A stretch of DNA of 64,000 nucleotides from an uncultured Acidobacteriota bacterium (GCA_963836435.1 CAWIJI010000015.1:318-64317), one strand, 5' to 3'; positions 17,196-64,000 are shown, counted from the stretch's first letter. A program made the numbers and translations. The notes: generated from the letters alone by a model not told the origin.

Positions 17196-19532
17196 ATGAT
17201 GAAGCGCTATGTTTTGGCGGCCACGGCGATCGTGCTGGGCATTGTTTCGTCGGGTTCCGCAGGCCCTGCCGGATTGCAAGCGGCCGCGCAGCAACTTCCT
17301 CAGGCGCAGGCCGCCGCGGTGCCCGCTGCCATCGCGCCTTACAAGGCAACCATCGATCAATATTGCGTCACCTGTCACAACCAGCGCACCAAGACTGCAG
17401 GCCTCGCGCTGGACTCCATGGATATGACGAAACTTCCCGAGCATGCCGAAACCTGGGAAAAGGCCATCATGAAGCTGCGCGGCAATCTGATGCCGCCACC
17501 CAACGCAAAGCAGCCCGAGCCGGCAGCCAGACAGTCGCTGGTAGCCTGGCTCGAGAATTCACTGGATCAGGCCGCAGCGGCGAATCCGAACCCCGGAAGT
17601 GTGCAACTCCATCGTTTAAACCGAAGCGAATATGCCGCATCCATCAAGGAGATCTTCGATATCGAGGTCGACGCTGCCAACCTTCTGCCTGCCGACGACA
17701 CCAGCGAGGGCTTCGACAACATCTCGAACGTTCTTAAAGTTTCGCCTTCATTTCTGGATCAATACATCAACGCGGCACGCGCGGTCACGCTTCAGGCGAT
17801 CGGTACGCCGATGACGGAGGAAGCTCAGCGCGTTACCTTGCGCCCCGGAAGCAACGAACTGGATCCTTATGTCCCCGGGGGCGTGCCGTTGGGGATGACG
17901 GGAACTGTTGTCGAGCATCAGTTCCCGGCGGATGGTGAATACGAAATTCGCGGCAACGGGAATATCCTGCTCGACGGCGTTCGCATCACACCAAACACGC
18001 GCATGGCGGTTAAGGCCGGGCCCCACAAGATTGCGACAGTTACCGCCCCGAGAAGCTTTGTGGAATCCGATACCGTGCTGCAGTCCTTCACGCCGGGAGG
18101 CGGCGGTGGATTCGGAGGCGGCGGGGGCCGCGGCGGCAGAGGCGGGGGCGGGGGCGGCATCCAGATTATCGGCCCCTTCACACCGACGACCGAGGTGCAG
18201 GATATCTCGAGCCGGCAGCGGATCTTCATATGCCACCCGGCGAGTGAGAGCCAGGAAATTTCCTGCGCCACCCAGATCCTCAAGAATACAGCGCGCCGCG
18301 CTTTCCGCCGGCCGGTCACCGACGAAGATGTCGCCGGGGCGCTCGCATCGTTCAAAGAGGGACGAGGTATCTACAAGAACTTCGAATCCGGGATTCAGTA
18401 CGGTTTGATGGCAATCCTGGCAAGCCCCAGATTCCTCTATCGCGTGGAACCCCCGTCAAAGACCGCAACTGCCGGCAGCAATTACAAGATCAGCAATCTG
18501 GAATTGGCCTCGCGGCTGTCCTTCTTCCTGTGGAGCCAGATCCCCGATGAGACGCTGCTCGATCTGGCGGCGAAGGGACGGCTGAGCGACCCCGCCGTGC
18601 TCGAACAGCAGGTCAAGCGCATGCTCGCGGATCCCCGAGCCAAATCCCTGGTCACCAATTTCGCCTTTCAGTGGCTCCGCGTTCGCGATCTCGACAAGAT
18701 CGATCCGGACGCCATCCTCTTCCCGAATTTCGATGCAGGTCTGAAGAACGCTTTCCGGACGGAAATGGAACTGTTCGTCTCGAGCATCTTCGAGGAAGAC
18801 CGCAGCGTCATGGAACTCCTGAACGCGGATTACACGTATCTGAACGAGCGTCTGGCCGCCCATTACGCCATTCCCGATGTGCGTGGCCCCCAATTCCGCC
18901 GCGTCACATTGACAGACCGCAACCGCTGGGGGTTGCTTGGAAAAGGCAGCGTTCTTCTGGTGACGTCGTATCCGAACCGAACGTCGTCCGTTCTCCGGGG
19001 TGCCTTCATCCTGGAAACGATCACGGGTACGCCGCCCGCAGCGCCGCCCCCGGGGGTTGACGCTTTCAAGGAAAACAAGGAAGGCGAAAAAGCCAAGTCG
19101 GTGCGCGAAATCATGCAGGCCCATCGCGCAAACCCTACCTGCAACGCGTGCCACGGCATCCTCGATCCTATGGGTTTCGCGCTGGAAAGTTTCGATGCAA
19201 TCGGCGAGTTCCGCACCAAGGACCGCTGGTCGTCAACCCCAATCGATGCGTCCGGCACTCTCGCGGATGGGACGCCGGTCAGCGGGCCGGACGATCTCAG
19301 GAGAGCGCTGACGAAGAAGCCGGACCAGTTTGTGCAGACAATGACGCAAAAGTTGATGACCTATGGTCTCGGCCGCAGCGTCGAGTACTTTGATATGCCG
19401 ACGATTCGCCGGATCGTTCGGGATTCCGCAAAGGATAATTACAGGTTTTCGTCACTCATTCTCGGTATCGTGAAGAGTGCGGCGTTCCAGTCTCAACGCG
19501 CACCGCAAGGCGACGCCAGGGTCGGGGACTAG
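17196..19532 (+). CDS. DUF1592/DUF1588/DUF1585/DUF1587/DUF1595 (PSD) protein with two CxxCH heme c motifs
   Basis: CVTCH, RLNRSEY, ARRAFRRPV, LASPRFLYR, LELASRLSFFLWS, RWGLLGKGSVL, RTSSVLRG, CNACH, DPMGFALESFD. Probable start at ATG 17196 rather than the ORF-track 17028. Confidence 0.85.
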   Translation: MMKRYVLAATAIVLGIVSSGSAGPAGLQAAAQQLPQAQAAAVPAAIAPYKATIDQYCVTCHNQRTKTAGLALDSMDMTKLPEHAETWEKAIMKLRGNLMPPPNAKQPEPAARQSLVAWLENSLDQAAAANPNPGSVQLHRLNRSEYAASIKEIFDIEVDAANLLPADDTSEGFDNISNVLKVSPSFLDQYINAARAVTLQAIGTPMTEEAQRVTLRPGSNELDPYVPGGVPLGMTGTVVEHQFPADGEYEIRGNGNILLDGVRITPNTRMAVKAGPHKIATVTAPRSFVESDTVLQSFTPGGGGGFGGGGGRGGRGGGGGGIQIIGPFTPTTEVQDISSRQRIFICHPASESQEISCATQILKNTARRAFRRPVTDEDVAGALASFKEGRGIYKNFESGIQYGLMAILASPRFLYRVEPPSKTATAGSNYKISNLELASRLSFFLWSQIPDETLLDLAAKGRLSDPAVLEQQVKRMLADPRAKSLVTNFAFQWLRVRDLDKIDPDAILFPNFDAGLKNAFRTEMELFVSSIFEEDRSVMELLNADYTYLNERLAAHYAIPDVRGPQFRRVTLTDRNRWGLLGKGSVLLVTSYPNRTSSVLRGAFILETITGTPPAAPPPGVDAFKENKEGEKAKSVREIMQAHRANPTCNACHGILDPMGFALESFDAIGEFRTKDRWSSTPIDASGTLADGTPVSGPDDLRRALTKKPDQFVQTMTQKLMTYGLGRSVEYFDMPTIRRIVRDSAKDNYRFSSLILGIVKSAAFQSQRAPQGDARVGD

Positions 19533-19631
19533 TGCTCGGAGTGCAACTCAGCGCGAAGCGTGAGCGCGATAGCGCGAAACCTCAGGGGTTGGGGCGCAGC
19601 CATAAAATGACAGTTCGATAGGAGAGGTCTA

Positions 19632-20954
19632 ATGTTCATTACGAAGAAGCATCTGCAACGCCGCACGTTCCTCAAAGGCATGGGTGTCACCATGGCATTG
19701 CCTCTGCTGGATGCCATGATTCCGGCCGGCACGGCGCTCGCCCAGACCGCTGCTGCTCCAACCCTGCGTGCCGGGTTTATCTATATTCCGCACGGCGCCG
19801 TAATGAGCCAGTGGACCCCGGAGAAGACCGGCACGGACTTTGAGTTCACACCAATTCTCAAGGCGCTGGAGCCGCACAGAAAACAGCTCACGATCGTCAG
19901 CGGTCTTGAGAACAGGGCCGCCATTGCCCCCCCGGTTCACGCGCTGAGCCCGGGGACGTGGTTGAGCGGGGTCGCGCCGCGCAAGAGCCAGGATCCGTGG
20001 GGCGGCAAGACCATCGACCAGATGATTGCCGACAAGATCGGACAGGACACCCCCTTCCCCACTCTGGAACTTGCCATTGAAGGCCGCGGTGGCGGCGGAT
20101 CCTGCGACCGCGACTACGGCTGCAGCTACTCGGGAACGATCTCTTTCCGGACGCCGAACCAGCCACTGCCGATGGAAACTAATCCACGCAAGCTCTTCCA
20201 GCGCCTGTTCGGCCAGGGCGACACCCCCGAAGAACGCAAGGTGATCGCCCGGCAATACTCCAGCGTGCTCGACCTGGTTTCCAGGGAAGCCGCGGACCTG
20301 CAGCGCGAATTGGGCGCAGCCGACAAGGTGGTGCTGACCGACTACCTGGAAACGGTTCGGGAAATCGAACGCCGCGTCGAGAAAATGGAAGCCCGCGACC
20401 TCTCGAAACTCAATCTGCCGCCCGCTCCAGCCGGTCCGCCGGCGAATTCCGATGATCATCTGAAACTGATGTTCGACCTGGCTCTGCTTGCCTATCAAGG
20501 CAACCTGACGCGCGTGTTCAGCCTGATGATGGCAGGGGAAGTCAGCAACCTGACCTACAACAACGTGGGGGTCCCGGACGCCTACCACCCCATCTCTCAC
20601 TACGGCGCCGACAAGACGAAGATCGACAAGTGCGTGAAGATTCAGACCTACTACAGCACGATCATCGCCCGATTCCTCGACAAGCTGAAGGCACTTCCGG
20701 ATGGCGACGGGAACATGCTGGATCACGCCCTTCTGGTGTGGGGCAGCAACATGAGCAACAGCAATGCGCACAATCACTATCCTCTGCCAATGACCATTCT
20801 CGGGGGAGCGAACGGCAAGGTGAAGGGTGGACAGCACCTCAAGTATCCCGATCAGACACCGCTTTCCAACCTGCTCCTCACGGTCGTTCAACGAGCCGGA
20901 GTCGAGGTCGATAAAGTCGGCGATGACGGCACGAAGCCGTTCTCGGAGGTCTAA
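19632..20954 (+). CDS. DUF1552 domain protein (Tat signal)
   Basis: RRTFLKGMGVTMALPLLDAM, YIPHG, TIDQMIAD, LPMETNPRKLFQRLFG, DYLETVREIERR, YHPISH, SNMSNSNAHNH. Confidence 0.88.
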   Translation: MFITKKHLQRRTFLKGMGVTMALPLLDAMIPAGTALAQTAAAPTLRAGFIYIPHGAVMSQWTPEKTGTDFEFTPILKALEPHRKQLTIVSGLENRAAIAPPVHALSPGTWLSGVAPRKSQDPWGGKTIDQMIADKIGQDTPFPTLELAIEGRGGGGSCDRDYGCSYSGTISFRTPNQPLPMETNPRKLFQRLFGQGDTPEERKVIARQYSSVLDLVSREAADLQRELGAADKVVLTDYLETVREIERRVEKMEARDLSKLNLPPAPAGPPANSDDHLKLMFDLALLAYQGNLTRVFSLMMAGEVSNLTYNNVGVPDAYHPISHYGADKTKIDKCVKIQTYYSTIIARFLDKLKALPDGDGNMLDHALLVWGSNMSNSNAHNHYPLPMTILGGANGKVKGGQHLKYPDQTPLSNLLLTVVQRAGVEVDKVGDDGTKPFSEV

Positions 20955-20955
20955 G

Positions 20956-22521
20956 ATGCGCCACGTTCTTTTGCTGCTTCTAGTCATGGCTGCCGCATGC
21001 GGAACTTCGCTGGCGGCGGGTCCCGCCGACCTGATAGACGCCGTGCAGACGGGCAACACGGCCGCTGCAATCAAACTCATCGACGCCAGGGTCAATGTCA
21101 ACGGCACGAGCGCCGACGGCACCACCGCTCTTCACTGGGCCGTTCACAATGCGGATGCAGAGATGGTGGATCGCCTGATCCGAGCCGGCGCCGAGGTCAA
21201 CATCAAGAACGAATACGGTGTCAGTCCGATTATCGAAGCGGCTAACGTCGGCAACACTTCCGTTATCGAAAAGCTGTTGAAAGCTGGAGCGAGCGCGAAC
21301 ACGCCTGGCGTGGACGGCATGACGCCCCTGATGATCATCGCCCGCAGCACGAATGTCGCCGCGGCCAAACTTCTTTTGGATCACGGCGCCGACGTCAATG
21401 CCAAAGAGTCGCAGCGAAACCAGACGGCATTGATGTGGGCTGCCGGACAGAGCCAGGCGCCCATGGTGGCGTTACTTGTAAAGGCCGGCGCCGACGTCGA
21501 CGCGCGCGCAGCGGTGAACAACACCTCCACCGCCAGTTATAACCCCGCCGGCTTCATGGAATGGCCGGCCACGGTCAGCGCCGAACCCCGGGCAGGGCCG
21601 CGTGCCGCCGGCGGATTTACGGCGTTGCTGTACGCCGCACGGGAAGGCTGCACGGAATGCGCGAAGGCATTGGTCGACGGGAGAGTCGATGTCAACATGG
21701 CCGATCCGGAAGGTGTTACTCCTTTGATCATGGCCACCTGGAACCTGAACTTCGATACGGCGGCGGTTCTGATCAAGGCCGGCGCCGACGTCAACCGCTG
21801 GGACCTCTGGGGACGCAGCGCGCTGTGGTGCACCGTCGACGTCAACACGCTTCCCCATGGCGGACGCGCCGACCGGCCTTCACTCGATGACACCACCGGT
21901 CTCGATATCATCCGCATGCTGCTGGAAGCGGGCGCAAACCCCAACCTGCAGCTGAAACTCTTTCCCCCGTACCGCAACACCGGCTCGGACCGCGGTGTGG
22001 ACCGCATGTTGACCATTGGATCAACACCGCTGCTGAGAGCTGCAAAAGCACTCGATGCTCCCGCCGTCAGGCTGCTCGTCGAACACGGCGCCAACGTCGA
22101 CCTTCCCAATATTCAAGGCATTTCGCCCGTAATGGCGGCTGCCGGCCTGGGTTCCACGGACGCCGATACCCGCGGGTGGTACACCCCCGACGACACGGCC
22201 CAGCGGTCCGTCGATACGCTCAAGATCCTTCTCGATGCGGGGGCGGACGTGAATGCCAAGGATCCGACAGGCAAGACCCCTCTCCACGCCGCCGCGTTCT
22301 GGGGATGGAACGCTGCAGTCCAGCTCCTCGTGGACCGGGGCGCGGATCTGTACGCCAAGTCGCGTGACCCACGCAACCCTCAGGGCCCAGAGACGAAAAC
22401 AGTCATCGATTCCGCAATGGGCCGAAATGGCGGGAACAGCCGCGGCGGCGCGCGCATTGATGTCCATGAGGACACGGCGAAGCTGCTTGAAGACCTGATG
22501 AAAACGCATCCGCCCAAATAG
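20956..22521 (+). CDS. Exported ankyrin-repeat protein
   Basis: Signal peptide MRHVLLLLLVMAA, then many ankyrin repeats (GTTALHWAV, GMTPLMI, QTALMWAA, GFTALLYAA, GSTPLLRAA, GKTPLHAAA). Confidence 0.9.
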   Translation: MRHVLLLLLVMAAACGTSLAAGPADLIDAVQTGNTAAAIKLIDARVNVNGTSADGTTALHWAVHNADAEMVDRLIRAGAEVNIKNEYGVSPIIEAANVGNTSVIEKLLKAGASANTPGVDGMTPLMIIARSTNVAAAKLLLDHGADVNAKESQRNQTALMWAAGQSQAPMVALLVKAGADVDARAAVNNTSTASYNPAGFMEWPATVSAEPRAGPRAAGGFTALLYAAREGCTECAKALVDGRVDVNMADPEGVTPLIMATWNLNFDTAAVLIKAGADVNRWDLWGRSALWCTVDVNTLPHGGRADRPSLDDTTGLDIIRMLLEAGANPNLQLKLFPPYRNTGSDRGVDRMLTIGSTPLLRAAKALDAPAVRLLVEHGANVDLPNIQGISPVMAAAGLGSTDADTRGWYTPDDTAQRSVDTLKILLDAGADVNAKDPTGKTPLHAAAFWGWNAAVQLLVDRGADLYAKSRDPRNPQGPETKTVIDSAMGRNGGNSRGGARIDVHEDTAKLLEDLMKTHPPK

Positions 22522-22539
22522 GAGGCTCCGTCAGGGTAT

Positions 22540-41093: not shown

Positions 41094-42005
41094 CTACTTT
41101 GCCGCCTGCAATTCCGCGTATAGCTGACCGATAAATCGATCGCCGGTGGTTCCGGGCATCACGATTTTCGAATCGAACTCCGCAGTAACTTTGGCCGCGT
41201 TCACCTGCTCCAGGGTTCGCCCCTGCTTGACAAGCGAGGCCACCTTGTCGCGAAGCGCAAGAATGATGTCGCGATGCGCCACAAGGCCGTTGCGATCCAC
41301 GGTTGCCCCGTGCCCGGGAATCACCTTCGTATTGGGGCCACAGAGTGCGATGGTGAACGCCAGACCGTCCAGCATGCCGTTCAACGATCCGCCGTTGGCT
41401 CGGTCGATGTTCGGGTAGCCGAGCGATCGGAAGTAGTCGCCGGTCATCAGAATGTCGTGGTTCACGAAATGAACAAGCGTGTCGCCGTCGGTATGCGCGT
41501 TGCGGATGGGAATCAGCTCGATGGTTTCGCCGTTCATATGAAGCGTGACCTTCTGATCATAGGTCACCACGGGGAGCGCCTTTGCAGGAGCCGGGGTTCC
41601 GGGAGCGCCGTTGGCGGCAGGATTGGGATTCGCCAACCGGTAACGCAGCTGCTCGCGCGAGAAGATCGTCACCCCCATTTTCCCGAAGTTCTCGTTGCCG
41701 CCGGTATGATCTCCGTGGACATGGGTGTTGACCAGGTAGCGGATCGGGTTGGGCGTGATTTTCTTGATCGCAGCCACGATTTTGTCGGTCAGCGCGGCGT
41801 ACTGCGCATCCACCATGAAGACGCCATCCGGCCCCGCGAGCACCCCGATCATGCCGCCGGAGCCTTCAAGCGTGTAGAAGTCGTCGGCAATCTTCGTCGT
41901 CTTGATTTCGACCGCCGCCAGATTCTGCTGTTGAGCATGAACAACGGCGGCCATCATGGCCGCCGTTGTCAATGCCATCGTCAGAGCAATGGCGCGCTTT
42001 CTCAT
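41094..42005 (-). CDS. Exported MBL-fold metallo-hydrolase (cyclase-like)
   Basis: Signal peptide; intact NTHVHGDHTGGN, AHTDGD, MTGD, VIPGHG. Confidence 0.88.
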   Translation of the reverse strand: MRKRAIALTMALTTAAMMAAVVHAQQQNLAAVEIKTTKIADDFYTLEGSGGMIGVLAGPDGVFMVDAQYAALTDKIVAAIKKITPNPIRYLVNTHVHGDHTGGNENFGKMGVTIFSREQLRYRLANPNPAANGAPGTPAPAKALPVVTYDQKVTLHMNGETIELIPIRNAHTDGDTLVHFVNHDILMTGDYFRSLGYPNIDRANGGSLNGMLDGLAFTIALCGPNTKVIPGHGATVDRNGLVAHRDIILALRDKVASLVKQGRTLEQVNAAKVTAEFDSKIVMPGTTGDRFIGQLYAELQAAK

Positions 42006-43651
42006 TTGCCCGCCGCCGCGTCGGCCTTCTTGCGGTCCTCCAGGGCTTTCATGAGTTCCGCCTTGTTCTGAGGTTCAGCGGAAGCATGGACGTTAATGTA
42101 GCGATCGAAATCGAGGTTGAGCTTTTCCAGAACAGGCCCGAGCGCCTTGACGTGATCGTTTGCCACTTCGCCCGGATTCGTAGGCAGCGAGAAGTCTCCC
42201 TGGAAGAGAACCTTTTCCTTCGGCAGATAGGCGATCATCAGTCCGTTCGAGTGCGGGGCACCCGGCACGTGATAGAACTCGACCGTGTGCATGCTGTCCG
42301 AAAAAACTTTCTTTTCGCCCATTCCCTCGACTTTGACTTTCCTGGGATTTGCGGCGAGAGGGTCGACCTTGGGGTCCAGCAGGGTTCTCGGAGTGTTCAG
42401 CGCCCTCTCGAGAAACTCTACATTGTTCCTGTGGGTGAGGATCGTGGCGCCTTCTGCCGCCAATGCCGGCAATCCTCCCGTGTGATCGGAGTGGGGGTGC
42501 GTGTTAAAGACGTAGCGAATCGGCTTGTTGGGAATGAGTTCCTTCGTTTTGGCGATATAGGCCTGGCCGCGCGCGATGGATTGGCCGGCCTCGAGCATCA
42601 TGACGTAGTCCTTGAATTCCACAATCACCGAATCGTAGCTGCCATTTCCCGCGGTGAGTCTCCATACGCCCTCACCGAGCTTTTCCGGCATGACGACAAG
42701 AGCAGCCGGAGCTGCCGCACCGCCGCCACGACCGCCGCCGCCGGCCGCAGGAGCCGCGCCGGGAACAGGAGGAATCGCGCCGGCCTGACCGCCGCGGCCT
42801 CCAGGAGCGCCACGACCGCCGCCGGCGCCGCCACCCCTGCCGGCAGCAGGTGGAGCTCCGCCACCGCCCCCTCGGGCCGGCGCTGGAGGTGGAACCGCCA
42901 GCGTTGCCAGATCCGGAGGATTCGCTTTCGCCGCCATGACATCGACTTCAAAGAAGGGCCAGCCGCCGCGTGTCTGCACGATCTTCGTCGGAGCCATGAC
43001 TCCGCCGAAGTCCTTCCAGCCCGTGTAGGTCGCAAGGATTTGCATGTCGCCCATGATGTTGTCGGCCGACCATGTTTCGACGCGCTCGACGATGTTCTTG
43101 TCATTCACGTAGCCGTTAATGACGTAGTTCTTGCCGGAATCGGCCTTGACCGTCGGGCTCCAGGTCAGGACGGTGTAGTTCTTGCCGTCCACCTTGCGGC
43201 GGCTCGCGGTGGCGTTGTTCGCCGCAGCGCCTTTCAGGAAACCCCATGGTGTGATGTAGAACTCGATCGACTGGGCCCAGGGCCGGCTGACATCGGCCTG
43301 CTGAGCCGTGACCTGCTGGTTGAAGTTTCCAGGGGTCAAGGCGGTTGAGCCGCCAGCCCCGATATTGTTCGTCGCTCCGGTGGCGCGCGATAGCGGGGCC
43401 GTCAGGTCGATCGCCCGAACGTAGTTGTTTATCGGACGCATCGGGTTATGCGGTCCTTTGCAGATCATGTCGGAGGCATTGGCTCCGCACTGCTGGAATG
43501 CCACATCCCTTGCGGATCCCGAATACGTGATGGATTTCAGATCGCCTAACGCCTTTTGCGCGTCGGCGATCACAGTCCTGGCATCCTGGGCCATCACCGT
43601 TCCGCACAGGAACGCGAGGCAGATTGCGACTACAAAAAATTTTCTGACCAC
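42002..43651 (-). CDS. Large exported MBL-fold protein with a Gly/Pro/Arg-rich linker
   Basis: Signal peptide, N-terminal beta domain, RGG-rich linker, C-terminal MBL domain with NTHPHSDHTGG, APHSNG, INVH. Confidence 0.8.
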   Translation of the reverse strand: MVRKFFVVAICLAFLCGTVMAQDARTVIADAQKALGDLKSITYSGSARDVAFQQCGANASDMICKGPHNPMRPINNYVRAIDLTAPLSRATGATNNIGAGGSTALTPGNFNQQVTAQQADVSRPWAQSIEFYITPWGFLKGAAANNATASRRKVDGKNYTVLTWSPTVKADSGKNYVINGYVNDKNIVERVETWSADNIMGDMQILATYTGWKDFGGVMAPTKIVQTRGGWPFFEVDVMAAKANPPDLATLAVPPPAPARGGGGGAPPAAGRGGGAGGGRGAPGGRGGQAGAIPPVPGAAPAAGGGGRGGGAAAPAALVVMPEKLGEGVWRLTAGNGSYDSVIVEFKDYVMMLEAGQSIARGQAYIAKTKELIPNKPIRYVFNTHPHSDHTGGLPALAAEGATILTHRNNVEFLERALNTPRTLLDPKVDPLAANPRKVKVEGMGEKKVFSDSMHTVEFYHVPGAPHSNGLMIAYLPKEKVLFQGDFSLPTNPGEVANDHVKALGPVLEKLNLDFDRYINVHASAEPQNKAELMKALEDRKKADAAAGK

Positions 43652-43665
43652 AAAACCTCCTTAAG

Positions 43666-45666
43666 TTAAGGCAAAGCGAAAACGTAAACGCCATTGGTGT
43701 TGGCGGGCGGCGGAGTGATCCCGGCCTGCGTGATCAATCCCGCAGTGACACCGCCTCGGCCCGTCAATACAGCGACATACTGTTTGCCGTTGACTGCATA
43801 AGTAATGGTGCTGTTCTGGATACTGCCGGGCAGGACAGCCTGCCAGAGGACCTTCCCATTGTCGGCATCGATAGCGCGGAAGTTGCGCGCCAGATCGCCC
43901 CAGAAAACCAGATCCCCCGCCGTAACCAGTGTGGCGCCATTGCCCGGAGAGCAGGTTTCAAAAAGACGAGTGACTTCCCCGGTCGTGGCGTTGACCTTGG
44001 CAACGCCTGCGAATTTTGCCGGGTCGGAACCTTCACGACGGATTGCGGTCCGCGCTTCACCGCGGCCGCCGCCTCCGCCACCGCGTCCACCACCACCGCG
44101 TCCACCGGCGGCTGCTCCGCCTGGAGCGCCACCACGGCCGCCAGGAGCGGCGCCCCCCGCGGGCGGACCGCCGGCAGCTCCGCGGCCGCCCCGGCCACCG
44201 CCTCCCGGGCCTGCGCCCACCGCTGCGGGAGCTGCACCAGGGGCGGGTTCAGGATTCGGGGGGCCCTGACACACGGCCGGTGTGACGGTGTAAGGCGCAG
44301 GCGGTTGCGGAGCGCCTGAAGGATCGGCGGACGTCATGTCGAGACAGTTGTCGACATACGGGATATAGAGAGAGTTCTTGCCGGGGTGATAGGACATCGG
44401 CCAATAACTCTTCGTGTTATACGAGCAGATAACGTGACGTTCACCCGGCTGATCGTTGATCAGGTCTTCGTTGATCCACGTTGTCCCGTCCGGATCGATT
44501 CGCGAAATCAGAAACCGGGGAGTGTCGTACGGAAACGGCGTCGCCCAGAGAAACTTGCCGTTTGTGCGATCAAGCGCAAACAACCCGCCGCCCTCACCCA
44601 CAGAAAACGAAATATCGTGCTGGGAATTCCTGGCAATGGTGGGATTGATCCACTTCACAGCCTTCGGATCGGGATTAACCGCAGCGTGCACCAGGACACG
44701 CTCGTTCGTGTAATCCTGATCCCAGTCGTCACCGGGCAGATGCTGGTAGTACCACAGCAGCTTGCCGGTGTTTCCATCGAGCGCGACCGTCGAGTTGCTG
44801 TAAAGGTCCGCCGGAGCCGACATGCCAATGGCGTTGGAGTTGCCCTGGTGCCGGGCCGAGCGTGTATTCGGTATGGGATTGGCGACACCCCAGTAAACGA
44901 TGTTCCGTACCGGGTCGTAGCTGCCGGTAAGTCCCCATGTGGAAGCCGAACGACCCGCGACGGGAGCTCCGCCCCACGACTTGTTGCCCACTTCATCATC
45001 TTCGCCGGCGGCGGTGTTGAACTTCCACAGTTCCTTGCCGGTCCTGGCGTCGTGCGCCGCGATGTAGCACCCCTGCTGCGGGGGTGTGCCGCACGTGCGG
45101 CCGGAAATGATTTTGTCTCCCGCCATGATCAGGCCGCCGGTGAGCCGCCCGCCATTATTAACGGCTTTGGTTTCCCAGCGAACCGCGCCCGTCTTCATGT
45201 CCAGAGCAACGATGACGCCATCCGTCGCAGGATAGAAAATCATGTCTTCGAACATCGCGAACGTCTTGCTGTTGCTGGCGCCGCCCGTTGGACGGCGATA
45301 TTCCCAGAGGAGATTCCCGTTGGTCGCATCGAGAGCCCAAACGACGCCACCGGCTGGACTGCCCGGCGCTCCAGGGTTCATGATGAACATCACGCCATCG
45401 TGAACGAGAGGTATGCTTTCCTGCGTCCCCGTCGCCATGTCCTTCGACCACGCCATCTTTAGCTGCGCCACATTGCTCTTCTTGATTTGATTGAGCGGAC
45501 TGAAGCGCTGGGCGTCGTACGTCCGGCTGAACATGAGCCAGTCGCTATCGCTGGGTTTTTGCAACATCGCTGTCGTCACCGGAGTGATTTTCCGGTCTTG
45601 CGAAAGGGACACCGTCGCGATCACTACGGCCAGTAAGACCATGAGGAATAGTGCTTTCCGTACCAT
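43666..45666 (-). CDS. PQQ-dependent dehydrogenase-like beta-propeller protein
   Basis: DWLMFSRTYDAQRFSPLNQI, LKMAW, YDPVRNIVYWG, LYSNSTVALD, WYYQHLPGDDWDQD, LVTAGDLVFWG, PITY-like TITYAVNGKQYVAV. Start placed at MVRKAL. Confidence 0.88.
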   Translation of the reverse strand: MVRKALFLMVLLAVVIATVSLSQDRKITPVTTAMLQKPSDSDWLMFSRTYDAQRFSPLNQIKKSNVAQLKMAWSKDMATGTQESIPLVHDGVMFIMNPGAPGSPAGGVVWALDATNGNLLWEYRRPTGGASNSKTFAMFEDMIFYPATDGVIVALDMKTGAVRWETKAVNNGGRLTGGLIMAGDKIISGRTCGTPPQQGCYIAAHDARTGKELWKFNTAAGEDDEVGNKSWGGAPVAGRSASTWGLTGSYDPVRNIVYWGVANPIPNTRSARHQGNSNAIGMSAPADLYSNSTVALDGNTGKLLWYYQHLPGDDWDQDYTNERVLVHAAVNPDPKAVKWINPTIARNSQHDISFSVGEGGGLFALDRTNGKFLWATPFPYDTPRFLISRIDPDGTTWINEDLINDQPGERHVICSYNTKSYWPMSYHPGKNSLYIPYVDNCLDMTSADPSGAPQPPAPYTVTPAVCQGPPNPEPAPGAAPAAVGAGPGGGGRGGRGAAGGPPAGGAAPGGRGGAPGGAAAGGRGGGGRGGGGGGRGEARTAIRREGSDPAKFAGVAKVNATTGEVTRLFETCSPGNGATLVTAGDLVFWGDLARNFRAIDADNGKVLWQAVLPGSIQNSTITYAVNGKQYVAVLTGRGGVTAGLITQAGITPPPANTNGVYVFALP

Positions 45667-46627: not shown

Positions 46628-46738
46628 TAGCTCGTTATGCCGTAACGAGAATTTTGTTCACGCAAGGCATAACGGGCCAGGCGCCCGAAGGCGCCGCGCA
46701 AGCGCCCGAGCCGGGGTCCGGGGCGGAGCCCCGTCTAG
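46628..46738 (+). repeat. Repeat family 2, empty copy E (~111 bp)
   Basis: TAGCTCGTTATGCCG...TAACGAGAATTTTGTTCACGCAAGGCATAACGGGCCAGGCGCCCGAAGGCGCCGCGCAAGCGCCCGAGCCGGGGTCCGGGGCGGAGCCCCGTCTAG; same sequence as the flanks of copy D. Confidence 0.85.
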
Positions 46739-48119: not shown

Positions 48120-48627
48120 ATGCCTGAACTCAAGATTCGCGTGAATGAGCAGGAGCGCAATGTGACTGCCGCGCCCGACACGCCGCTGCTGTATGTGCTG
48201 ATGGACGAGTTGGAACTCAAAGGGCCGCGGTTCGGCTGCGGACTCGGCCAGTGCGGGTCGTGCTCGGTGTTGGTGAATGGCGTGGAAACGCGATCCTGCA
48301 TGACAAAGGTTGCCGACGTGACAGGAAAGTCCGTCACGACGCTGGAAGGGCTGCCCGCCTGGTATGCCGCGCAGAAAAAGCTTCGAAGGCGCCCGGCACT
48401 GCATCCCGTCCAGCAGGCCATGATCGACGAGCAGGCGCTGCAATGCGGCTACTGCTTCAACGGCATGATCATCAAAGCTTCGGAGCTGCTCTCGAAGACG
48501 CCCCAACCGACCGACGCGCAGATTCGCACGGCAATGAACGGACATCTATGCCGCTGCGGCACTTATCCGAGAATCCTGAAAGCCATTCCAGCGCGCTTCG
48601 CTAGCGATGAAGGGGGTGCCGAAATGA
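48120..48627 (+). CDS. (2Fe-2S)-binding small subunit (IorA/CoxS-like); 1-nt frameshift near the end
   Basis: GPRFGCGLGQCGSC, QCGYC, HLCRCGTY. A shifted frame ends at TGA 48625-48627, overlapping the next ATG. Confidence 0.88.
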
Positions 48628-50838
48628 GCACCCGACGAGAATTCCTCAAGACAGGCGGCGCACTGGTTGTCGGCTTCAGTCTCGGCGAAGGCGACGGGCT
48701 AGGCGCTCAGGGTCGGGGAGCGCGAGGAGCGGCGCCGGTCCCCGACCTGCGGCAGGTCGACACCTGGCTCGCGATCCACGCCGATAACACCGCGACCGTT
48801 TACATCGGATTCGCCGAGCTCGGCCAGGGCGCATCCACAGCGCTGCTGCAGATCGCGGCCGAAGAACTCGACCTGGACATGCCCCAGATCAATACGGTGC
48901 AGCTCGATACCAGACGTCACGCCCAATCAGGGCGGCACTTATTCCAGCGCGTCGATCAGCCGGGGGACCGCAGGTCCGCACCGCCGCGGCCGAAGCCCGG
49001 CTCGCGCTTCTGCAAGATCGCGTCGGCCAGACTCGCTGCGCCGCTGGAAGCCGCTGGCGGTTTCCAAGGGCGTGGTTACCGTCGCGGCAACCCGGCACGT
49101 TCGGTCACCTACGGCGAACTGATCGGCGACAAGCCTTCAACCTTGCCTTCACGGGGTCGGCTCCGGTAAAACCCGCGAGCGATTACAGGATCGTCGGCAA
49201 GCCCGCCGCGCGCAAGGACATGGCCGACAAAGTCGCGCGGCAACTATGCCTACATGCAGTACGTGCGCGTGCCGGGCATGCTGCACGGACGCATCGTTCG
49301 GCCGCGTGGCCAGGGCGCGTACGGTACGTCGCCAAGGTCCTGAGCGTCGACGAAGTCGTCGATCCGCGCGATTCCCGGCGCTGCGCGTGGTCCGCAAGGG
49401 GATTTCGTGGGCGTGGTCGCGGAAAAGGAATGGGATGCCGTGCGAGCCGCCCAACAATTGAAAGTCACGTGGGACACCAAGCCTTCATTGCCGGGAAGCG
49501 AGGCGCTTTACGAGCACATGCGCGCAGCCAAAACGCAGGAAGCAGCGTCCGTGAAAGCGGCAACGTGGCAGGCAGCGTTCAGCGGCGCCGCCCACGTCGC
49601 TTCCCAAAATGCCAGGGCCCCTATCAGGCTCACGCTCCGTTCGGGCCGAACTGCGCGATCGCCGACGTGAAGGCGGACTCGGCGCTGGTCATGTGCTCGA
49701 CGCAGGACATCTACAACCTGCGCACCGGCCTCGCCCGAATGCTCGAACCTGCGCAGCAGAAAAGATACGGGTCCGGTACTACGAAGGTTCAGGCACCTAC
49801 GGCCATAGTTGTCACGACGATGTGGCTCAGGCCGCTGTGATCCTGTCGCAGGAGTCGGCAAACCCGTTCGGTTGCAGTTCATGCGATGGGACGAGCACGG
49901 CTGGGACAACTACGGACCGGCGCATGTGGGCGAAGTTCGCGCGGCCGCCGATGCCGAAGGGAAAGATCGTCGCATACGAATATCACGGCTGGCAGCACAG
50001 CTGGAGCAATACCGAAACGTCCGATCAACTGGCGTTCGGGACGCCGGCGGCCGAGCGGCCCGGAATCGGAGCCCAGGGCATCAATCCCCTCACGCTCGGC
50101 TCGATGTACGACATTCCGAATCTCGCCTGATAAACCACAAGCTTCCGGGGCTCGAGTATCTGAAAGGTGCATGGTTGCGCTCGCCGCTGGATCTCTCGTT
50201 GTCGTTTGCATCGGAGCAGGCGATCGACCAGCTCGCCTATCTTCTCGAGATCGATCCCTGGGAATTCCGTCAGCGCAATATCAAGGATGCGCGCTGGCTG
50301 GGCGTTCTCAATGCTGCGGCACAGGCGGCAAAATGGACACCCCGCCGCGCGGCCTCCGGACTTTCAAACGCGAAAGTCGTGACCGGACGCGGTATCGGCG
50401 TCGGCACGCATCTCGCGTCGTACGGCGGCGCTGTCGCGGAAATCGAAGTCAACAAGGAGACCGGCCGGGTGGTCGCGAAACATCTTTATGGCGCGATCGA
50501 TGCCGGACTGGTCGTCAATCCCGGCATCGTCGAAGCGCAGATCACCGGACAACTGGTTCAGACCGCCAGCCGCATGTTCAAAGAGGAAGTGACCTTCAAT
50601 ACAACTAACGTCACAAGCCTGGACTGGGGCAGTTATCCGATCCTGCGCTTCGAAGAAACCCCCGAAGTTACACCGGTCGTCGTGCAACGTTTAGATGAAC
50701 GTTCCTCGGGGGCGGGCGAAGAAGTTATGGCCGCCTGCCGCGGCGGCGATCGCCAACGCGTTCTTCGATGCAACCGGAGTCCGGATGGAACGGTATCCCT
50801 TCACGCCCAGTCGCGTGCTGACCGCGATGAAGAAGTGA
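48624..50838 (+). CDS. Tat-exported molybdopterin-binding aldehyde/xanthine oxidoreductase large subunit (IorB-like), many frameshifts
   Basis: MSTRREFLKTGG Tat leader, ELGQGASTAL, YVRVPGMLHGR, HAPFGPNCAIADV, YYEGSGTYG, VRLQFMRWDEHGWD, WLRSP, SFASEQAIDQLA, GAIDAGLVVNP, YPILRF. Confidence 0.85.
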
Positions 50839-52492: not shown

Positions 52493-52838
52493 CTAGCTCG
52501 TTATGCCGGGCATAACGAGAATTTTGTTCCCGCAAGCCATAACGGGCCAGGCGCCGAAGGCGCCCTGGAGTTTAGTTAGACATTCTAGCCCCGGGTGGAG
52601 CGCAGCGACACCCGGGGTTCATCTCACGAGGGGCGTTCGCACCCCGGCAGGCCCCGGCAGGGGTGCGAGGAATCCCTGCACCCCTGCCGGGGTGCGAACA
52701 TCTCCGTTACGGCAACCCCGGGTTGCGCTCGCTTCGCTCGCTTAACCCGGGGCTAAATTCTCAGCACGCCTCCGGCGTGCTAGCGCCGAAGGCGCCGCGC
52801 AAGCGCCCGACCCGGGGTCCGGGGCAGAGCCCCGTCTA
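52493..52838 (+). repeat. Composite repeat D: family 1 element (52565-52782) nested inside family 2
   Basis: Family 2 left half, GCGCCGAAGGCGCC (52551-52564), 218-bp family 1 insert, GCGCCGAAGGCGCC (52783-52796), family 2 right half. Confidence 0.9.
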
Positions 52839-57684: not shown

Positions 57685-57751
57685 CGCCTGATAGTACAGG
57701 CCAGTATCGGCCCCTGAAAGCGGAGGGATGGCGCGATAGACGCGGTGGCGC

Positions 57752-58726
57752 TCACCGGCCCGCTTCCGGTATCCACTTGTGCCGGGCCATGAATCGCAGC
57801 GCCTGTTCGGGCCACTCCTTGATCGTCTCGTCGTTCAGATTCGTGCCCATCCCAAAGCCGTGAGGACCGTTCTCCAGAATGTGCATTTCCGCGGAGACTC
57901 CCGCCTGGAGACAAGCCTCGTAAAACAACAGCGAGTTTTTCACAGGGACCAGCCGGTCGTTCGTGCCGTGGACCAGGAACACCGGCGGGGTGTCCCGAGT
58001 GACGTGCTTTTGGGGTGACAAGAGATCGTACAGGGCCGGGTTATCCTGCGTCAGGTTGGTTCGGGAGCCTCGATGGGTGACCGCGTCGTCCGTCAGATCA
58101 ATGACCGGATAAAGGAGGAGTGCGAAGGCCGGCCTGGCACTCAACCCATCCGTCGCGTCCGCGACGTAGGGGCTCTCCGGCTGCAGTTTGTTGTCGTACA
58201 GAGTGGCCAGCAATGCTGCCAGATGCCCACCCGCCGAGCCGCCGAGGACACCAACCTTGGCCGGATCCACGTGATACTCCTGAGCGTGGGCCCGGATGAG
58301 CCGCAGCGCGCGTTGGGCATCCAGGAGGGTCGTGGGATAGTGATAGCGCGGCCCGTGCCGATAACGCAGGACGAATGCTGCGACGTTGTGCGACAGAAAG
58401 AACCTTGCCGGCTCCGGTCCTTCACCCGGTACCGTCAACATCTGATACCCGCCACCCGGCAGGATAAGCACCCCGGCCCCCGTGGCCTTGTCCGGTTCCG
58501 GAATATACACATCCAGCGTCGGCTCCGTGGGGTCCAGCTCCGTCTCCCGGCCGGCGACGACGTTGGGCGTCGTGCCGTACAGCTTGATGCGCGGCACGTT
58601 ATCGGTGGCCCGCGCAGCCGACACGGCCGCCTGGGTCGCCGCGGCCGCGCCGGGCATAGAGACAAGCGTCGCGCATGTTAGCGCCCCGAGAAACAACAAC
58701 GTCCCGGCAATCCAAGTTCGACGCAT
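57752..58726 (-). CDS. Exported alpha/beta hydrolase (acetyl/feruloyl esterase-like)
   Basis: Signal peptide; LPGGGY, GGSAGGH, HGTND, GPHGFG. Confidence 0.85.
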   Translation of the reverse strand: MRRTWIAGTLLFLGALTCATLVSMPGAAAATQAAVSAARATDNVPRIKLYGTTPNVVAGRETELDPTEPTLDVYIPEPDKATGAGVLILPGGGYQMLTVPGEGPEPARFFLSHNVAAFVLRYRHGPRYHYPTTLLDAQRALRLIRAHAQEYHVDPAKVGVLGGSAGGHLAALLATLYDNKLQPESPYVADATDGLSARPAFALLLYPVIDLTDDAVTHRGSRTNLTQDNPALYDLLSPQKHVTRDTPPVFLVHGTNDRLVPVKNSLLFYEACLQAGVSAEMHILENGPHGFGMGTNLNDETIKEWPEQALRFMARHKWIPEAGR

Positions 58727-58751
58727 GAAAGAAATCCTCCTAACCGTTCGC

Positions 58752-59741
58752 CTACTTAACCCAACCCTTCAGCGTGTCGGCCACGGCGGTCGCCCAGATC
58801 TCGTAGCCCTGCGGATTGGGGTGAAGGTGTCATTGCGGAAACCGATGAGGCGTCCCTGATCGTCGAGGAACTTGTCGTTAATGTTCCGGAAGAAGACGTG
58901 TTTGCCATCATCCAGCCTGGCGATGATCTTGTTGGCCTCGTCATTCCTCATGCGGCTGGCATCGGTCGGGCCTGCGCCGCGCGGAAAATCGCCAGGAGCA
59001 GAATCCTGGCGTCCGGGAAAGTCCTTGCGCAATTCATAGATATCGGCGCCGACGCCCTCGGCAATCTCTGACTGCGGAGTTACCTTGACTATTGTTGTTC
59101 GTACCAATCATGAGCATGACGGCCTTGGGCTTGTGGCCCTGGCCTTCACCATTTTGCAGGCCCCACAGCACGCCCTGCGTGGTGTCGCCGGCGACCGCGA
59201 AATTCGCAATTTTCACGTCGCCGAAATACTTCTGCTGCACATCGGCGCCGCCCCCTGGGCCGCGGCCTGCTGCCACAAATCGGTAATGGAATCGCCGTCG
59301 AACAGGATATCGAAATCTCCGGTTTTGGCGGTCTCGACGAAGCCATCGTGGCGTTGCGGTCGTGCGCACGGAGTCTGAACTGGGGCGATCGCCGAGTTGG
59401 GCCGCGGCGCGGTGACGGCTGATCAGGTCGGCATACTTCTTCAGTACCGCGCGATCTGGCGACGTGTTGGAATCCACGAATCGCTTTAGAGACGCATTGA
59501 TCCTTTCCAGTTCATCGGCAGTGGGGCGCTGAATGGCCACTTCTGGAGGAACCGGTGCCGGAGGGCCCGCAGGCGCCCCACGCTGTCCCCTGCCGCCTCT
59601 GCCACCAGGCGCCTGGGGCGGAGCCTGGACTGGCGCCGCCAGCACTGCGCCCCCTGCCCTGCCGCCGCCCAAAGTGGCGCCCATCACTGTCGTCACACCC
59701 AGCACAGCAGCAAAAGAAATCCCAACCCAGTGTCGTTTCAT
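58752..59741 (-). CDS. Exported SGNH/GDSL acetylesterase (PAF-AH Ib-like), frameshifted
   Basis: Signal peptide; ILFDGDSITD (shifted), NFAVAGDTTQGVLW, MIGTNN, VIL-PRG-like segment, NDTFTP...GYEIWA. Confidence 0.78.
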
Positions 59742-59822
59742 ATGCACTCCTTCAACATAAGTTCCGGCAACATAAGTTCCGGCGCACCGCGCACGGAAGT
59801 GCGCCAAATTCATTCATGCTAC

Positions 59823-60803
<981 letters not shown>

Positions 60804-60856
60804 AAGACGAATACTCCTTCAGTTTCAGAGAAAGTTGGTTGACTCATTGGCATAGT

Positions 60857-61820
60857 CTAGTTGACCTTCGCGCCCTGGTCGTAGGGCTTCAGGCGGACGA
60901 ATCCAGACATTCCGATAGCGGACGCGCGCACGCCCCTGAAGCTGCAACGGCAACTCCGGATCGTGAGGCGTGTACACGTGCGGCGTCATGGTCGGCGTGG
61001 TGGTGCCGTACAACTCCGCGCGGTTTTGCACGACCACGCCGTTCCAGAAAATCGTAAAGTAGCCGGGCGTCACCCTGCCAGTGAACCGTGGCGCCTCGAA
61101 CACGATGTCGAGCGATTGCCATTCGCCGGGCTTTCGGGACACGTTCACGAGCGGCGGCCACTCCCCATAGATCGAAGCCATCATGCCGTCGGCGTACGTC
61201 CGGTTGTTGTACGAGTCCAGGATTTGGATCTCGTACCGGCCCATAAAGGTCACGCCGCCGTTGCCGCGATCCTGGCTTGTGCCCGTCACGTCGGCGGGAA
61301 TGGCGTATTCCAGGTGCAACTGGACGTCGCCGAAACTCTGCGCGAGTCGAAAGGTTGCCGCCCTGAGCCTCGAAGTAGCCGTCGCGCGACTGGCCAGGTC
61401 GCGGGAGACTCGGCGCCATTCGGTCCACGATTCACCCACTGCGACAGATCTTTGCCATCGAACAGCACGATAGAGTCGGAGGGCGGCGGGACGCTGACCG
61501 TTTCGCCCGGCGTGACCGTCGGCGGCTGCGGACGCTCCGGCATCGTGAATTCGCCATCGCGTATCGGGATTGAAGGCAGTGTCCGTGAATCCCCACACTT
61601 CGCCGTCCGGTCCGGGGACGGGGGTTCCCTGTCCAGCGCCTCCGCGTGCGCCACGGCCCGCTCCGCCACGACCCGCAGCCGGCTGCGCCGCACCTTGACC
61701 CTGCGGGGGCCCCTGCTGGGCCGAAACCAATATGCCCGACAAGCTACTGCCGGAAATCGCCAGACCCACGATACCGGCGAGCGCCAAACTGCGTATGACT
61801 TCAGTGTGATGACCGATCAT
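60857..61820 (-). CDS. DUF1080 / 3-keto-disaccharide hydrolase family protein, frameshifted
   Basis: PPPSDSIVLFDGKDLSQW (shifted frame), FGDVQLHLE, RGNGG, YEIQILDS, YADG, W-Q-x-L-D-I, VRYRNVWIR. Likely stop TAG at 60857-60859. Confidence 0.82.
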
Positions 61821-61838
61821 GAGAATCTCCCGATCCTC

Positions 61839-63477
61839 TCAATAGAGAGTAAACGCATACAGTGTGTCGCCGATTGCGACCAGAACGTGCTGGCGCCCAT
61901 CCACCAGATACGTCTGCGGCGCATTGGAGGTGTTGCCGATGCGGGTATGCCAGAGCGGCTTGCCGTCTCGCGCATCCCGTGCCACGAAATTGCCGCTGCC
62001 GTCTCCGGACAATAACAGCCCTCCCGCCGTTGTCAGCAGCCCGGCCCCGACGCCGCCGCCCGTAATGGGTTTTCGCCACGCGACGCGTCCGGTCTTGTAG
62101 TCGATCGCTGTCAGGAAATCGCCGGCAGAACCGACAATCGAAACCGTCTTGCCGCCCAGTCCCATGGAGCCGCGCGGATCGGGGTCGCTCAGGTACAGGA
62201 GGTCGAAGCCATTGTGTTCGTTCACGTAAAAGAGGCCCGTATCCGGGGAGAACGCCGCCGGGGGCCAGTTCGTCACGCCGCTTTCCACCGGAGAAACCAG
62301 CGACCCCGGAATCGTCGCTTCCTTGCCAGGGTCCGGTTCGACAACGCCGTTAGGGCGCGTGCCTTTGGCCCAGTTCGCCGTCGAACCGTACCTGGCTGTG
62401 ACGATGTTTTCGCCGGTGACGCGATCGAGTGTGAAAAAGTAGCCGTTGCGCGCCGCGGTCGAGACCAGTTTGCGCGGCCGGCCATTGATCGACGCCGTCA
62501 ATCAGCACCGGAGTCTGCGCGGAATCCCAATCGTGGGTGTCATGCACGGAAGTCTGGAAATACCAGGCCATCTTGCCCGTGTCCACGTTTACGGCAATCA
62601 GCGAACAGGTGAAAAGGTTGTCGCCGGGCCGCCCGGCCCCCGTGTAGGCCGGCGTCGGATTACCGGTTCCGAAGATGTAGAGCTTCGTCTCGGGATCGTA
62701 GACTCCGGGAACCCAGACCTGACCGCCGCCGTGGCGCGCCGCTTCCAGGTTCGGCCAGGTTTCGAGCCCGGGGTCGCCCGGGTTCATGGGCACCGTATAG
62801 AACTTCCACTGCAGCTTTCCGGTTTCCGGATCGTAAGACTGAAGGAATCCGGGCGCATCAAGATCATTACCTGTTCCGACCAGCAGATGGTCACCGACAA
62901 CCACCGGCGCCATGGTCGAGAAATACTGTCCTTCGAAGTCCGCGATTTCAATGTGCCAGCGTTCCTTGCCCGTCTTTGCGTCCAGCGACACCAGGTAGTC
63001 GTCGGGAGTTTCGAAGAACAGATAGTTGTGCCAGATGCCAACACCCCGATTGCCGGTGTGGGTGCCCCCGCGCGTTCTCCAGAAGTAATGCCACAGCAGG
63101 CGGCCGTCACGCGCATCCAGCGCCCAGACATGGTCGGCCGCCGTGGCATAGAGCGTGTCGTCAACGTACAGGATCGAACCCGAGACGTTCCCATTGGTGT
63201 ACTCACCGGCGCCCACGCCGCCGAGAATCGTCTGTGGGCTTCCAGCGGCGCCGTTCAGACGCGCCACCCAGGACAGGGTGAGATTCTTCACCGTGTTGCG
63301 GTTGACCTGCGTGAGCGCACTGAAACGGCGTCCGGTGTAGTCCCCGGAGTATGTGGGCCAGGTGTCCGACAGAGGCTTGAGCAGGAGAGCAGGGTCGAGT
63401 CCGCCGGAAGACTGCGCCGCGGAGAGAACCGGCAGCGCCGCCAGGAAAATGAGCAGGAGGATCCTTCGGATTTTCAT
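61839..63477 (-). CDS. Acido-empty-quinoprotein group A-like PQQ beta-propeller, frameshift near 62490
   Basis: LLKPLSDTWPTYSGDYTGRRFS, HTGNRG, NDLDAPG, GGGQVWVPG, GTGNPTP, HDTHDWDSAQTP, ARNGYFF, APQTYLVDGRQHV. Resembles TIGR04528 as recalled. Confidence 0.8.
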
Positions 63478-64000
63478 TTCAGGGTTACCAGGTATGCCGT
63501 CACGTCGTGGATATCCTTGTCCGTGTAGACGGAAAGCAGTTTGAGATGGCCTTCGCGCGGGATGCGGATTTCAACCTTCGGCACATCGCCTTCGCGGCGG
63601 AAAGAACGCGACGTGCCGTCCGCCAGCGCGAGCGCGACGACGAATTCGTCGGCGCGAATGACTCTCCCCTCGACCTTTTGCCCGTTGCGCAGGGTTACGG
63701 TCGCGGTCGACGGCGTGGATCCCGCCGCCGCGTCCCCCGGTGCCGCCGGTGACCCAGGTGTTCTGCAGCTGCGCGGGATTTGTAAACCGCGCGCCGATTC
63801 CGCGGAGATCTCCCGTTGCCGAATGACAGCCGGCGCACTTGGATTCGAAATAGGAGCGGCCCGCGGCCGCATCGCCCACGAGCACGTTGAGAGACACCGG
63901 CGGACCGGGCGGCGGAGACCCTTGCCCCCGCGCTGTTGCCAGAACGCTATGGATGTACTCGGCGATGGCTCGCGTGTCCTCGGCTGGGCAGATCGATGGG
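63474..64000 (-). CDS. c-type cytochrome, 3' part (runs off the window; frameshift near 63720)
   Basis: IAEYIHSV...GDAAAGRSYFESKCAGCHS, then TVTLRNGQKVEG...YTDKDIHDVTAYLVTLK; overlaps the quinoprotein start. Confidence 0.78.
   Translation of the reverse strand, partial: HRSAQPRTREPSPSTSIAFWQQRGGKGLRRPVRRCLSTCSWAMRPRAAPISNPSAPAVIRQREISAESARGLQIPRSCRTPGSPAAPGDAAAGSTPSTATVTLRNGQKVEGRVIRADEFVVALALADGTSRSFRREGDVPKVEIRIPREGHLKLLSVYTDKDIHDVTAYLVTLK

Follow-up and report, generated by a model that had tools for sequence, protein, structure and literature searches.

Why should a series of unrelated, mostly exported proteins of one bacterium carry chains of glycine interrupted by single arginines? Such RGG/RG tracts are a textbook feature of intracellular RNA-binding, phase-separating proteins. 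The question is raised by a stretch of 64,000 nucleotides (the window; C15:318-64317), which belongs to a genome assembly of 4.94 Mb in 18 contigs with a GC content of 57-60%. The named relatives of one host protein come from metagenome-assembled genomes (MAGs) labelled Bryobacteraceae, Bryobacterales, Solibacteraceae or Terriglobia, and because of these labels the host is placed, as judged from its sequence, among the uncultured soil acidobacteria of the family Bryobacteraceae (class Terriglobia, phylum Acidobacteriota). The tracts are found throughout the host genome, nearly always in exported proteins. The explanation that we favour, with moderate assurance, is that they are a lineage-typical, disordered and cationic spacer of extracytoplasmic proteins, which would have grown by small duplications under a constraint on composition and whose functional role is putative.

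Tracts in the host genome and in the window

Genes were called by our own codon-likelihood picker of open reading frames (ORFs), which gave 3976 genes, and signal peptides by our own heuristic for the n-region, the h-region and an AxA site; both are crude, and the latter over-calls, flagging 38-40% of all proteins. A tract was defined strictly as a 15-residue window with at least eight Gly and 2-5 Arg, and this is the definition to be trusted: 133 such tracts are present in the coding frame of 103 of the 3976 predicted proteins, compared with 3, 23, 11, 6 and 0 in the five wrong frames. A loose definition (a 12-residue window with at least 9 of 12 residues Gly or Arg) gives 148 tracts, as against 4-8 after the residues are shuffled within each protein. 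The loose definition was dropped, since frame +2 of real genes yields 133 irregular, Arg-heavy shadow matches wherever a codon ending in G or C precedes one that begins with G; raw six-frame scans with loose RGG settings would report these shadows as false tracts.

Comparison of the signal-peptide proteins with all others across the proteome reveals a strong bias, with a signal peptide in 85 of the 103 carriers and in 1490 of the 3873 other proteins (38%; odds ratio 7.6, p 2e-19), and restricting signal peptides to those at the called start still leaves an odds ratio of 4.6. The 18 carriers left without a signal, when read by eye, are mostly proteins with missed Sec or Tat leaders, a membrane anti-sigma factor and frameshift fragments. 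After this review and Pfam assignment, the genuine cytoplasmic carriers are an RNase E/G, a DnaJ-type chaperone and an RRM protein (3/103). A preliminary description of the window had stated that the tracts are absent from the cytoplasmic enzymes encoded there; the export bias extends to the whole genome, in which these three proteins are the cytoplasmic carriers. The eukaryotic RGG/RG motifs are reportedly defined in Thandapani et al. 2013; as regular expressions with RGG units 0-4 residues apart, a di-RGG pattern occurs in 79 host proteins and a tri-RGG pattern in 22, and 19 of the latter 22 have a signal peptide.

The carriers include both Sec and Tat substrates, and their functions are diverse. 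Among 19 other carriers drawn at random, Pfam recognized sorbosone dehydrogenases (GSDH), ankyrin repeats, carboxylesterases, a Tat-exported thiamine-pyrophosphate (TPP) enzyme, a DPP-IV-type peptidase, and metallo-beta-lactamase-fold (MBL), PQQ and DUF4159 proteins, while eight had no Pfam match. The TPP enzyme (C2:323700-325658), which has the Tat leader NRRGFLKK, bears RGG tracts both after the leader and internally; thiamine-pyrophosphate enzymes are uncommon among exported proteins. In the ankyrin-repeat proteins (C13:45823-47343 and a 402-residue protein on C2) the tracts lie in loops between repeats and in tails, and a signal peptide is predicted for one of these tract-bearing proteins.

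Part of the export bias reflects a general tolerance of exported proteins for low-complexity regions, since regions of every kind (window entropy at most 2.2 bits) occur in signal-peptide proteins (235 in 1575) at about five times the frequency seen in the others (73 in 2401). This observation also suits the most serious rival explanation, in which replication slippage or unequal recombination expands seeds rich in GGN and CGN codons at any site that can accommodate disordered chain. Exported proteins would then simply offer more such sites in their linkers, loops and termini, and the tracts would be a neutral by-product with no function of their own. Among the low-complexity regions of the host, the type made of Gly, Ala, Arg and Pro predominates. 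According to a survey that covered more than 1500 prokaryotic proteomes, Arg is heavily under-represented in low-complexity regions, and Arg-rich ones are tied to RNA binding (PMC6821194). The host reverses this trend, as Arg-Gly chains are its dominant low-complexity type and are nearly restricted to exported proteins.

The tracts of the window were located by a six-frame scan together with direct translation, and the families of their carriers were assigned by Pfam:

18105-18173, plus strand: GGFGGGGGRGGRGGGGGG tract in an exported DUF1592/PSD cytochrome-domain protein (gene ~17196-19532), between its PSD3 (residues 196-258) and PSD5 (residues 413-474) domains
42698-42916, minus strand: interdomain linker rich in Gly, Ala, Pro and Arg, with five RGG units, in an exported two-domain MBL protein (gene 42002-43651)
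42779-42847, minus strand: core tract of this MBL linker
44005-44304, minus strand: loop of ~100 residues with an insert of ~80 residues rich in Gly, Ala, Pro and Arg, in an exported PQQ dehydrogenase (gene 43666-45666)
44044-44118 and 44161-44217, minus strand: core tracts of this PQQ dehydrogenase loop
48624-48737, plus strand: Tat signal (MSTRREFLK...) followed directly by QGRGARGAAP (48708-48737), in a molybdopterin-binding (Mo) subunit
59565-59612 (also delimited as 59577-59612), minus strand: APGGRGGRGQRG tract soon after the signal peptide of an SGNH/GDSL hydrolase (ORF 59034-59813), whose ORF is apparently frameshifted downstream
60681-60728, minus strand: 13-residue tract directly after the signal peptide of an esterase (ORF 59823-60803)
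60252-60281, minus strand: second, internal tract of 10 residues, with a stretch of 12 residues noted before it, in the same esterase, in a loop of the hydrolase fold
61623-61676, minus strand: AGRGGAGRGARGGAGQG tract after the signal peptide of a DUF1080/3-keto-disaccharide hydrolase (ORF 60825-61820)
63721-63747, minus strand: GGTGGRGGG in a c-type cytochrome (CxxCH motif; CAGCH upstream)

All the Gly/Arg tracts of the preliminary description were thus recovered in frame, at or near the coordinates given there. Its view of the carriers as unrelated and mostly exported also held, with eight different Pfam families in the window and a Sec- or Tat-type leader in every carrier whose N-terminus is visible; that of the cytochrome falls past the end of the window. 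The cytochrome tract is in a frame different from that of the C-terminal part of its gene (63474-63872), and the frame apparently shifts at the tract or beyond it.

Wrong-frame translation or assembly error in G-rich DNA would be another source of Gly/Arg stretches, and the irregular matches in frame +2, the frequent apparent frameshifts, including the one at the cytochrome tract, and the completeness score of the host genome (68.8%) are in keeping with such an artefact. On the other side stand the Pfam domains that lie in frame on both sides of tracts, the excess of strict tracts in frame over the 0-23 found off frame, and more than 200 independently assembled orthologues that share tracts at the same positions of the MBL and PQQ proteins. 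We regard an artefact as highly improbable overall, and for the MBL and PQQ proteins it is essentially refuted by the in-frame domains and the independent orthologues.

Turnover in two enzymes and dependence on lineage

The best structural relative of the PQQ enzyme, PDB 4cvb, aligns with it on both sides of the tract, where ~100 residues of the query face a loop of ~20 residues. AlphaFold2, run on an alignment of 31 sequences, predicts the insert to be without secondary structure, with values of the predicted local distance difference test of 24-32, while the propeller blades around it are predicted confidently. According to Pfam, the MBL tract sits between the two domains of its protein. As a side observation, these are an N-terminal PF23023-type domain and Lactamase_B, and the genomes of Bryobacteraceae have 2-17 matching copies each.

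Among 120 close homologues of the MBL protein the aligned slice containing the interdomain linker ranges from 40 to 132 residues and the repeat units of the linker are not alignable; at least one GRGG is kept in nearly all of them, and two have Lys instead. The PQQ loop is graded in a similar manner: in its shortest form it has 31 residues and no tract (CLDMTRADGNQPERR...), loops of intermediate length (40-80 residues) contain one or two RG units, and the longest reaches 133 residues. The orthologue with the 31-residue loop is a functional-looking, tract-free enzyme of 578 residues. In MAFFT alignments the MBL linkers follow the genome in which they occur, being long and RGG-containing in tract-rich genomes and short and Pro/Ala/Gln-rich, or ordinary, in tract-poor ones; three tract-poor genomes of the genus g108 (G153, G163 and G173) have MBL paralogues without tracts. 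Because the linkers and loops of orthologues vary from tract-free to very long, the tracts are dispensable for the enzymes and turn over quickly. The spacer that we favour would gain and lose small in-frame units, and such duplications and deletions would give the wide differences in length among orthologues and the orthologues without tracts. The same differences suit a neutral by-product as well. They are difficult to reconcile with the earlier wording of one and the same insert, since close orthologues differ widely in length and sequence and no fixed position is kept.

The MBL protein also separates the effect of lineage from that of base composition. Gammaproteobacterial MAGs, including Candidatus Rariloculaceae, hold MBL orthologues with 55-64% identity, which suggests that the protein may have moved between phyla. 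None of the 18 gammaproteobacterial linkers, which are rich in Gly and Pro, contains RGG, GRG or GGR, despite a GC of 0.63-0.69 at the locus, whereas 55 of the 62 linkers of orthologues labelled Acidobacteriota (locus GC 0.56-0.66) contain one of them (p 1e-12). Because the orthologues of higher GC lack the motif and those of the Acidobacteriota have it, the habit of placing Arg within Gly tracks the host lineage rather than base composition or protein family. A single GRGG is retained even in minimal linkers, which, together with this difference between phyla, speaks against a neutral by-product.

The taxonomic spread was followed with a coding pattern for GGGRGG (GGNGGNGGNCGNGGNGGN) in ~190 Acidobacteriota genomes, as a proxy for tract density, and the reversed pattern, which in effect encodes GGAGG, served as a control. 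The host genome has 113 matches as compared with 22 of the control, or 23 per Mb, and its ratio of pattern to control is the highest among the genomes with substantial counts. An excess is also found in the host's genus (72 v 36), and in two more genera of the family (117 v 45; 84 v 42). Two further families of the class (75 v 24; 122 v 40) show one too, as do a few families from other classes. Most of the ~190 sampled genomes show no excess of GGGRGG over the reversed control, and a phylum-wide trait is thereby ruled out. In two tract-rich genomes, one from another family and one from another class, the tracts lie in frame in long ORFs with a signal peptide wherever the N-terminus is visible.

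Across the genomes of Bryobacteraceae the density ranges from 0.5 to 23 per Mb at a GC of 0.54-0.63, as sampled over ~7 kb per genome. This spread of about 40-fold at similar GC, along with the gammaproteobacterial orthologues, rules out an origin driven by GC, so that the tracts are not accounted for by the base composition for which the preliminary description had wished to control. Species of the same genus differ as well (G172 has 54 matches and G158 has 6), a variation that is consistent with neutral gain and loss.

Composition, charge and possible roles

The chain consists of Gly-rich sequence with evenly spaced single Arg in [G/A]-R-G-G units, and its flanks are enriched in Pro and Ala. 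Over all tracts the residues are 55% Gly, 15% Arg, 13% Ala and 5% Pro, with 0.2% Lys, 1.2% Asp plus Glu and 0.8% Ser, and Arg is followed by Gly in ~90% and preceded by Gly or Ala in ~85% of cases. In the predicted proteome GGRGG occurs 196 times, GGAGG 28, GGDGG 9, GGSGG 6, GGEGG 4 and GGKGG 0 times. Spacings of 3-7 between successive Arg residues are enriched, and spacings of 1-2 are three times rarer than in shuffled tracts. A polyglycine-II or collagen-like fold was considered and rejected, in view of the low AlphaFold2 confidence and of Arg spacings in which 3 is the mode at 21.5% and 4-7 are also common.

A single base change can turn a Gly codon into one for Asp, Glu or Ser. Neutral expansion has difficulty with the near absence of these residues and of Val, likewise one base from Gly, where Arg and Ala dominate instead. 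The spacer explanation that we prefer would include a filter on composition, by which Arg is kept as practically the sole charged residue, dibasic pairs are avoided, and Lys, Asp, Glu and Ser are nearly excluded; GGG and CGG codons would be avoided too. The Gly codons of the tracts are indeed mixed (GGC 0.49, GGT 0.24, GGA 0.17, GGG 0.10), and the tracts use GGT and CGT more, and GGG and CGG less, than the remainder of the genome does, a pattern that again counts against a purely neutral origin. Tandem Repeats Finder detects ~2 copies of units of 9-21 nt with 66-100% match, that is, small duplications and no long pure repeats. The earlier remark that codons vary and that the tracts are not one DNA repeat agrees with these data, and a single mobile DNA repeat is ruled out by the mixed codons and the weak tandem-repeat signal. 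From the same mixed codons and two-copy repeats it appears that small duplications contribute to the tracts and that the tracts are probably not microsatellites. The local duplications of 15-21 nt visible inside tracts are equally what neutral expansion would leave behind.

With respect to charge, the mature proteins of the carriers without their tracts have a median net charge of -4, to which the tracts add a median of four Arg and bring it to 0; the median of other exported proteins is -1. In the most basic quartile of exported proteins, tracts occur in only 5 of 322, as against 23-32 of ~321 in each of the other quartiles. The number of tract Arg drops as the net charge of the carrier rises, with length controlled (partial r -0.26, p 0.015). 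Avoidance of carriers that are already basic, and scaling with the acidity of the carrier, are not expected of a neutral by-product, and the relation points modestly to selection on charge.

These features may be understood if the tracts have a generic physico-chemical role, as a flexible, soluble and weakly cationic tether that would space domains and offset the negative charge of its carrier. They would occupy sites that tolerate extra chain, after Sec and Tat signals, between domains, in surface loops and at C-termini. A weak electrostatic affinity for the anionic envelope (phospholipid head groups, lipopolysaccharide (LPS), peptidoglycan and exopolysaccharide) is probable on this account. 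The affinity of RGG chains for nucleic acid would keep them out of cytoplasmic proteins, and cytoplasmic carriers would be confined to the classical ones, namely RNase E/G, the RRM protein and the G/F region of DnaJ.

The preliminary description had proposed a lineage-wide envelope tag for co-condensation or binding to anionic polymers, or a sorting or processing signal. A dedicated tag might be read by specific machinery, such as a factor for sorting, a protease that processes the proteins or an Arg-modifying enzyme, or it might drive co-condensation of periplasmic enzymes with an anionic polymer. The strong export specificity speaks for such a tag, as does the resemblance of the Arg-only chemistry and regular RGG units to the multivalent-binding motifs of eukaryotes; moreover, engineered RGG domains displayed at the Escherichia coli cell surface drive cell-cell condensation and aggregation (PMC12595443). 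The positions of the tracts do not fit a tag, as 27 are N-terminal (at most 40 residues from the predicted cleavage), 24 are C-terminal (at most 40 residues from the end) and 82 are internal, and across the 133 tracts there is no fixed position or flanking motif and no hydrophobic segment after the C-terminal ones. Besides the sites described earlier, after signal peptides or in surface loops, interdomain and C-terminal tracts exist as well. Sec and Tat substrates carry tracts alike, and lipoproteins almost never do, with a lipobox in 1 of the 85 carriers with a signal peptide compared with 117 of the 1490 other signal-peptide proteins. These positions and the lipobox count rule out the known sorting signals (Tat motif, lipobox, PEP-CTERM, GlyGly-CTERM and LPXTG) and a lipoprotein tether. 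Tract-free orthologues and the patchy density, with several-fold differences among species of one genus, are further at odds with the proposal, and no candidate partner turned up, although no search for partner genes was made. In sum, a dedicated tag seems to us improbable.

An even bolder reading of the same features would be a shared multivalent system of RGG "stickers" in several Acidobacteriota lineages, which would bind reversibly to an anionic polymer of the envelope or matrix and concentrate ~100 unrelated enzymes in a gel- or condensate-like surface layer. Candidate polymers are peptidoglycan, LPS, an anionic glucan, exopolysaccharide and extracellular nucleic acid. We offer it as a speculation that is doubtful at best; if true, such a layer would be the extracytoplasmic counterpart of the RGG-driven condensates of eukaryotes.

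Several observations weigh against the spacer explanation itself. The charge correlation is modest and is built on our own gene calls and on the over-calling signal-peptide heuristic, and the many apparent frameshifts of the assembly degrade those gene calls. The even spacing of Arg may be inherited from duplicated GGRGG units instead of being selected, and the patchy variation among species, together with the tract-free orthologues, fits a neutral by-product almost as well. Furthermore, the first 30 mature residues average a charge of +1.5 in the carriers with N-terminal tracts, compared with -0.1 in other exported proteins. In E. coli, positive charge near the start of the mature protein is expected to impede Sec export, so N-terminal tracts would carry a cost that the spacer explanation leaves unexplained. 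The effect of early positive charge in the mature chain on Sec export in E. coli was reportedly treated by Andersson and von Heijne 1991 and by Kajava et al. 2000. On balance, we judge a neutral by-product to be the less probable of the two explanations, though it is a serious rival.

Relation to known systems and further observations

The tracts share the grammar of the eukaryotic RGG/RG or GAR regions of nucleolin, fibrillarin, FUS and hnRNPs, which are likewise Gly-rich, disordered and cationic through Arg only. The eukaryotic regions belong to intracellular nucleic-acid-binding proteins and are methylated by protein arginine methyltransferases (PRMT), whereas the carriers in the host are periplasmic or secreted dehydrogenases, hydrolases and cytochromes. 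To our knowledge, neither nucleic acid nor S-adenosylmethionine is to be expected in the compartment of these carriers.

With the linkers of envelope and secreted proteins, such as the Pro/Thr linkers of cellulases, the spacers of TonB and TolA and lipoprotein tethers, the tracts have in common their positions, disorder, hypervariable length and dispensability. They behave as disordered linkers do, being predicted to be unstructured, lying outside or between domains, and being variable and dispensable. They differ from these linkers in that Arg defines them and that their carriers are almost never lipoproteins. The Gly/Arg regions of cytoplasmic bacterial proteins (the G/F region of DnaJ, the Gly-rich tails of RRM proteins and the Arg-rich segments of RNase E) are present in the host too and have a similar local composition, but these are conserved, family-specific parts of chaperones and RNA-binding proteins and make up merely the three cytoplasmic carriers mentioned above.

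The mycobacterial PE_PGRS proteins and the (GGX)n proteins of plant cell walls resemble the tracts in being lineage-specific, Gly-rich, exported and encoded by GC-rich DNA. They are dedicated families built of repeats, and PGRS is without Arg, whereas the host tracts are short add-ons across unrelated enzymes. The unusual element is the Arg chemistry. A literature search of open-access papers and preprints found no description of exported bacterial RGG tracts.

A single genome has about a hundred carriers, and the pattern recurs in other Acidobacteriota; the tracts could matter in more than one way. If functional, they would represent an unstudied means by which abundant soil bacteria organise their periplasmic and extracellular enzymes or keep them in place, and a natural source of cationic, export-compatible disordered linkers. 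If neutral, they would offer a clean natural case of the birth of low-complexity sequence, its filtering by compartment and its shaping by charge. In either case, they account for the breaks seen in mid-sequence when carrier enzymes are aligned by BLAST.

Frame changes or out-of-frame ends occur in many genes of the window, namely those of the Mo subunit (48120-49169), the SGNH hydrolase (59034-59813), the esterase (59823-60803), the DUF1080 protein (60825-61820), a second PQQ dehydrogenase (61839-63477) and the cytochrome c (63474-63998). Their frequency, together with the completeness score given above, suggests an indel-rich assembly, possibly from long reads, or pseudogenes. As well, short intergenic repeats of hairpin type, for example CCCCGGCAGGGG and CGCTCGCTT, are found in the window at 11786-12260, 46628-46738 and 52493-52838, and a tandem-repeat scan shows them to recur at 11903-12004 and 52642-52743.

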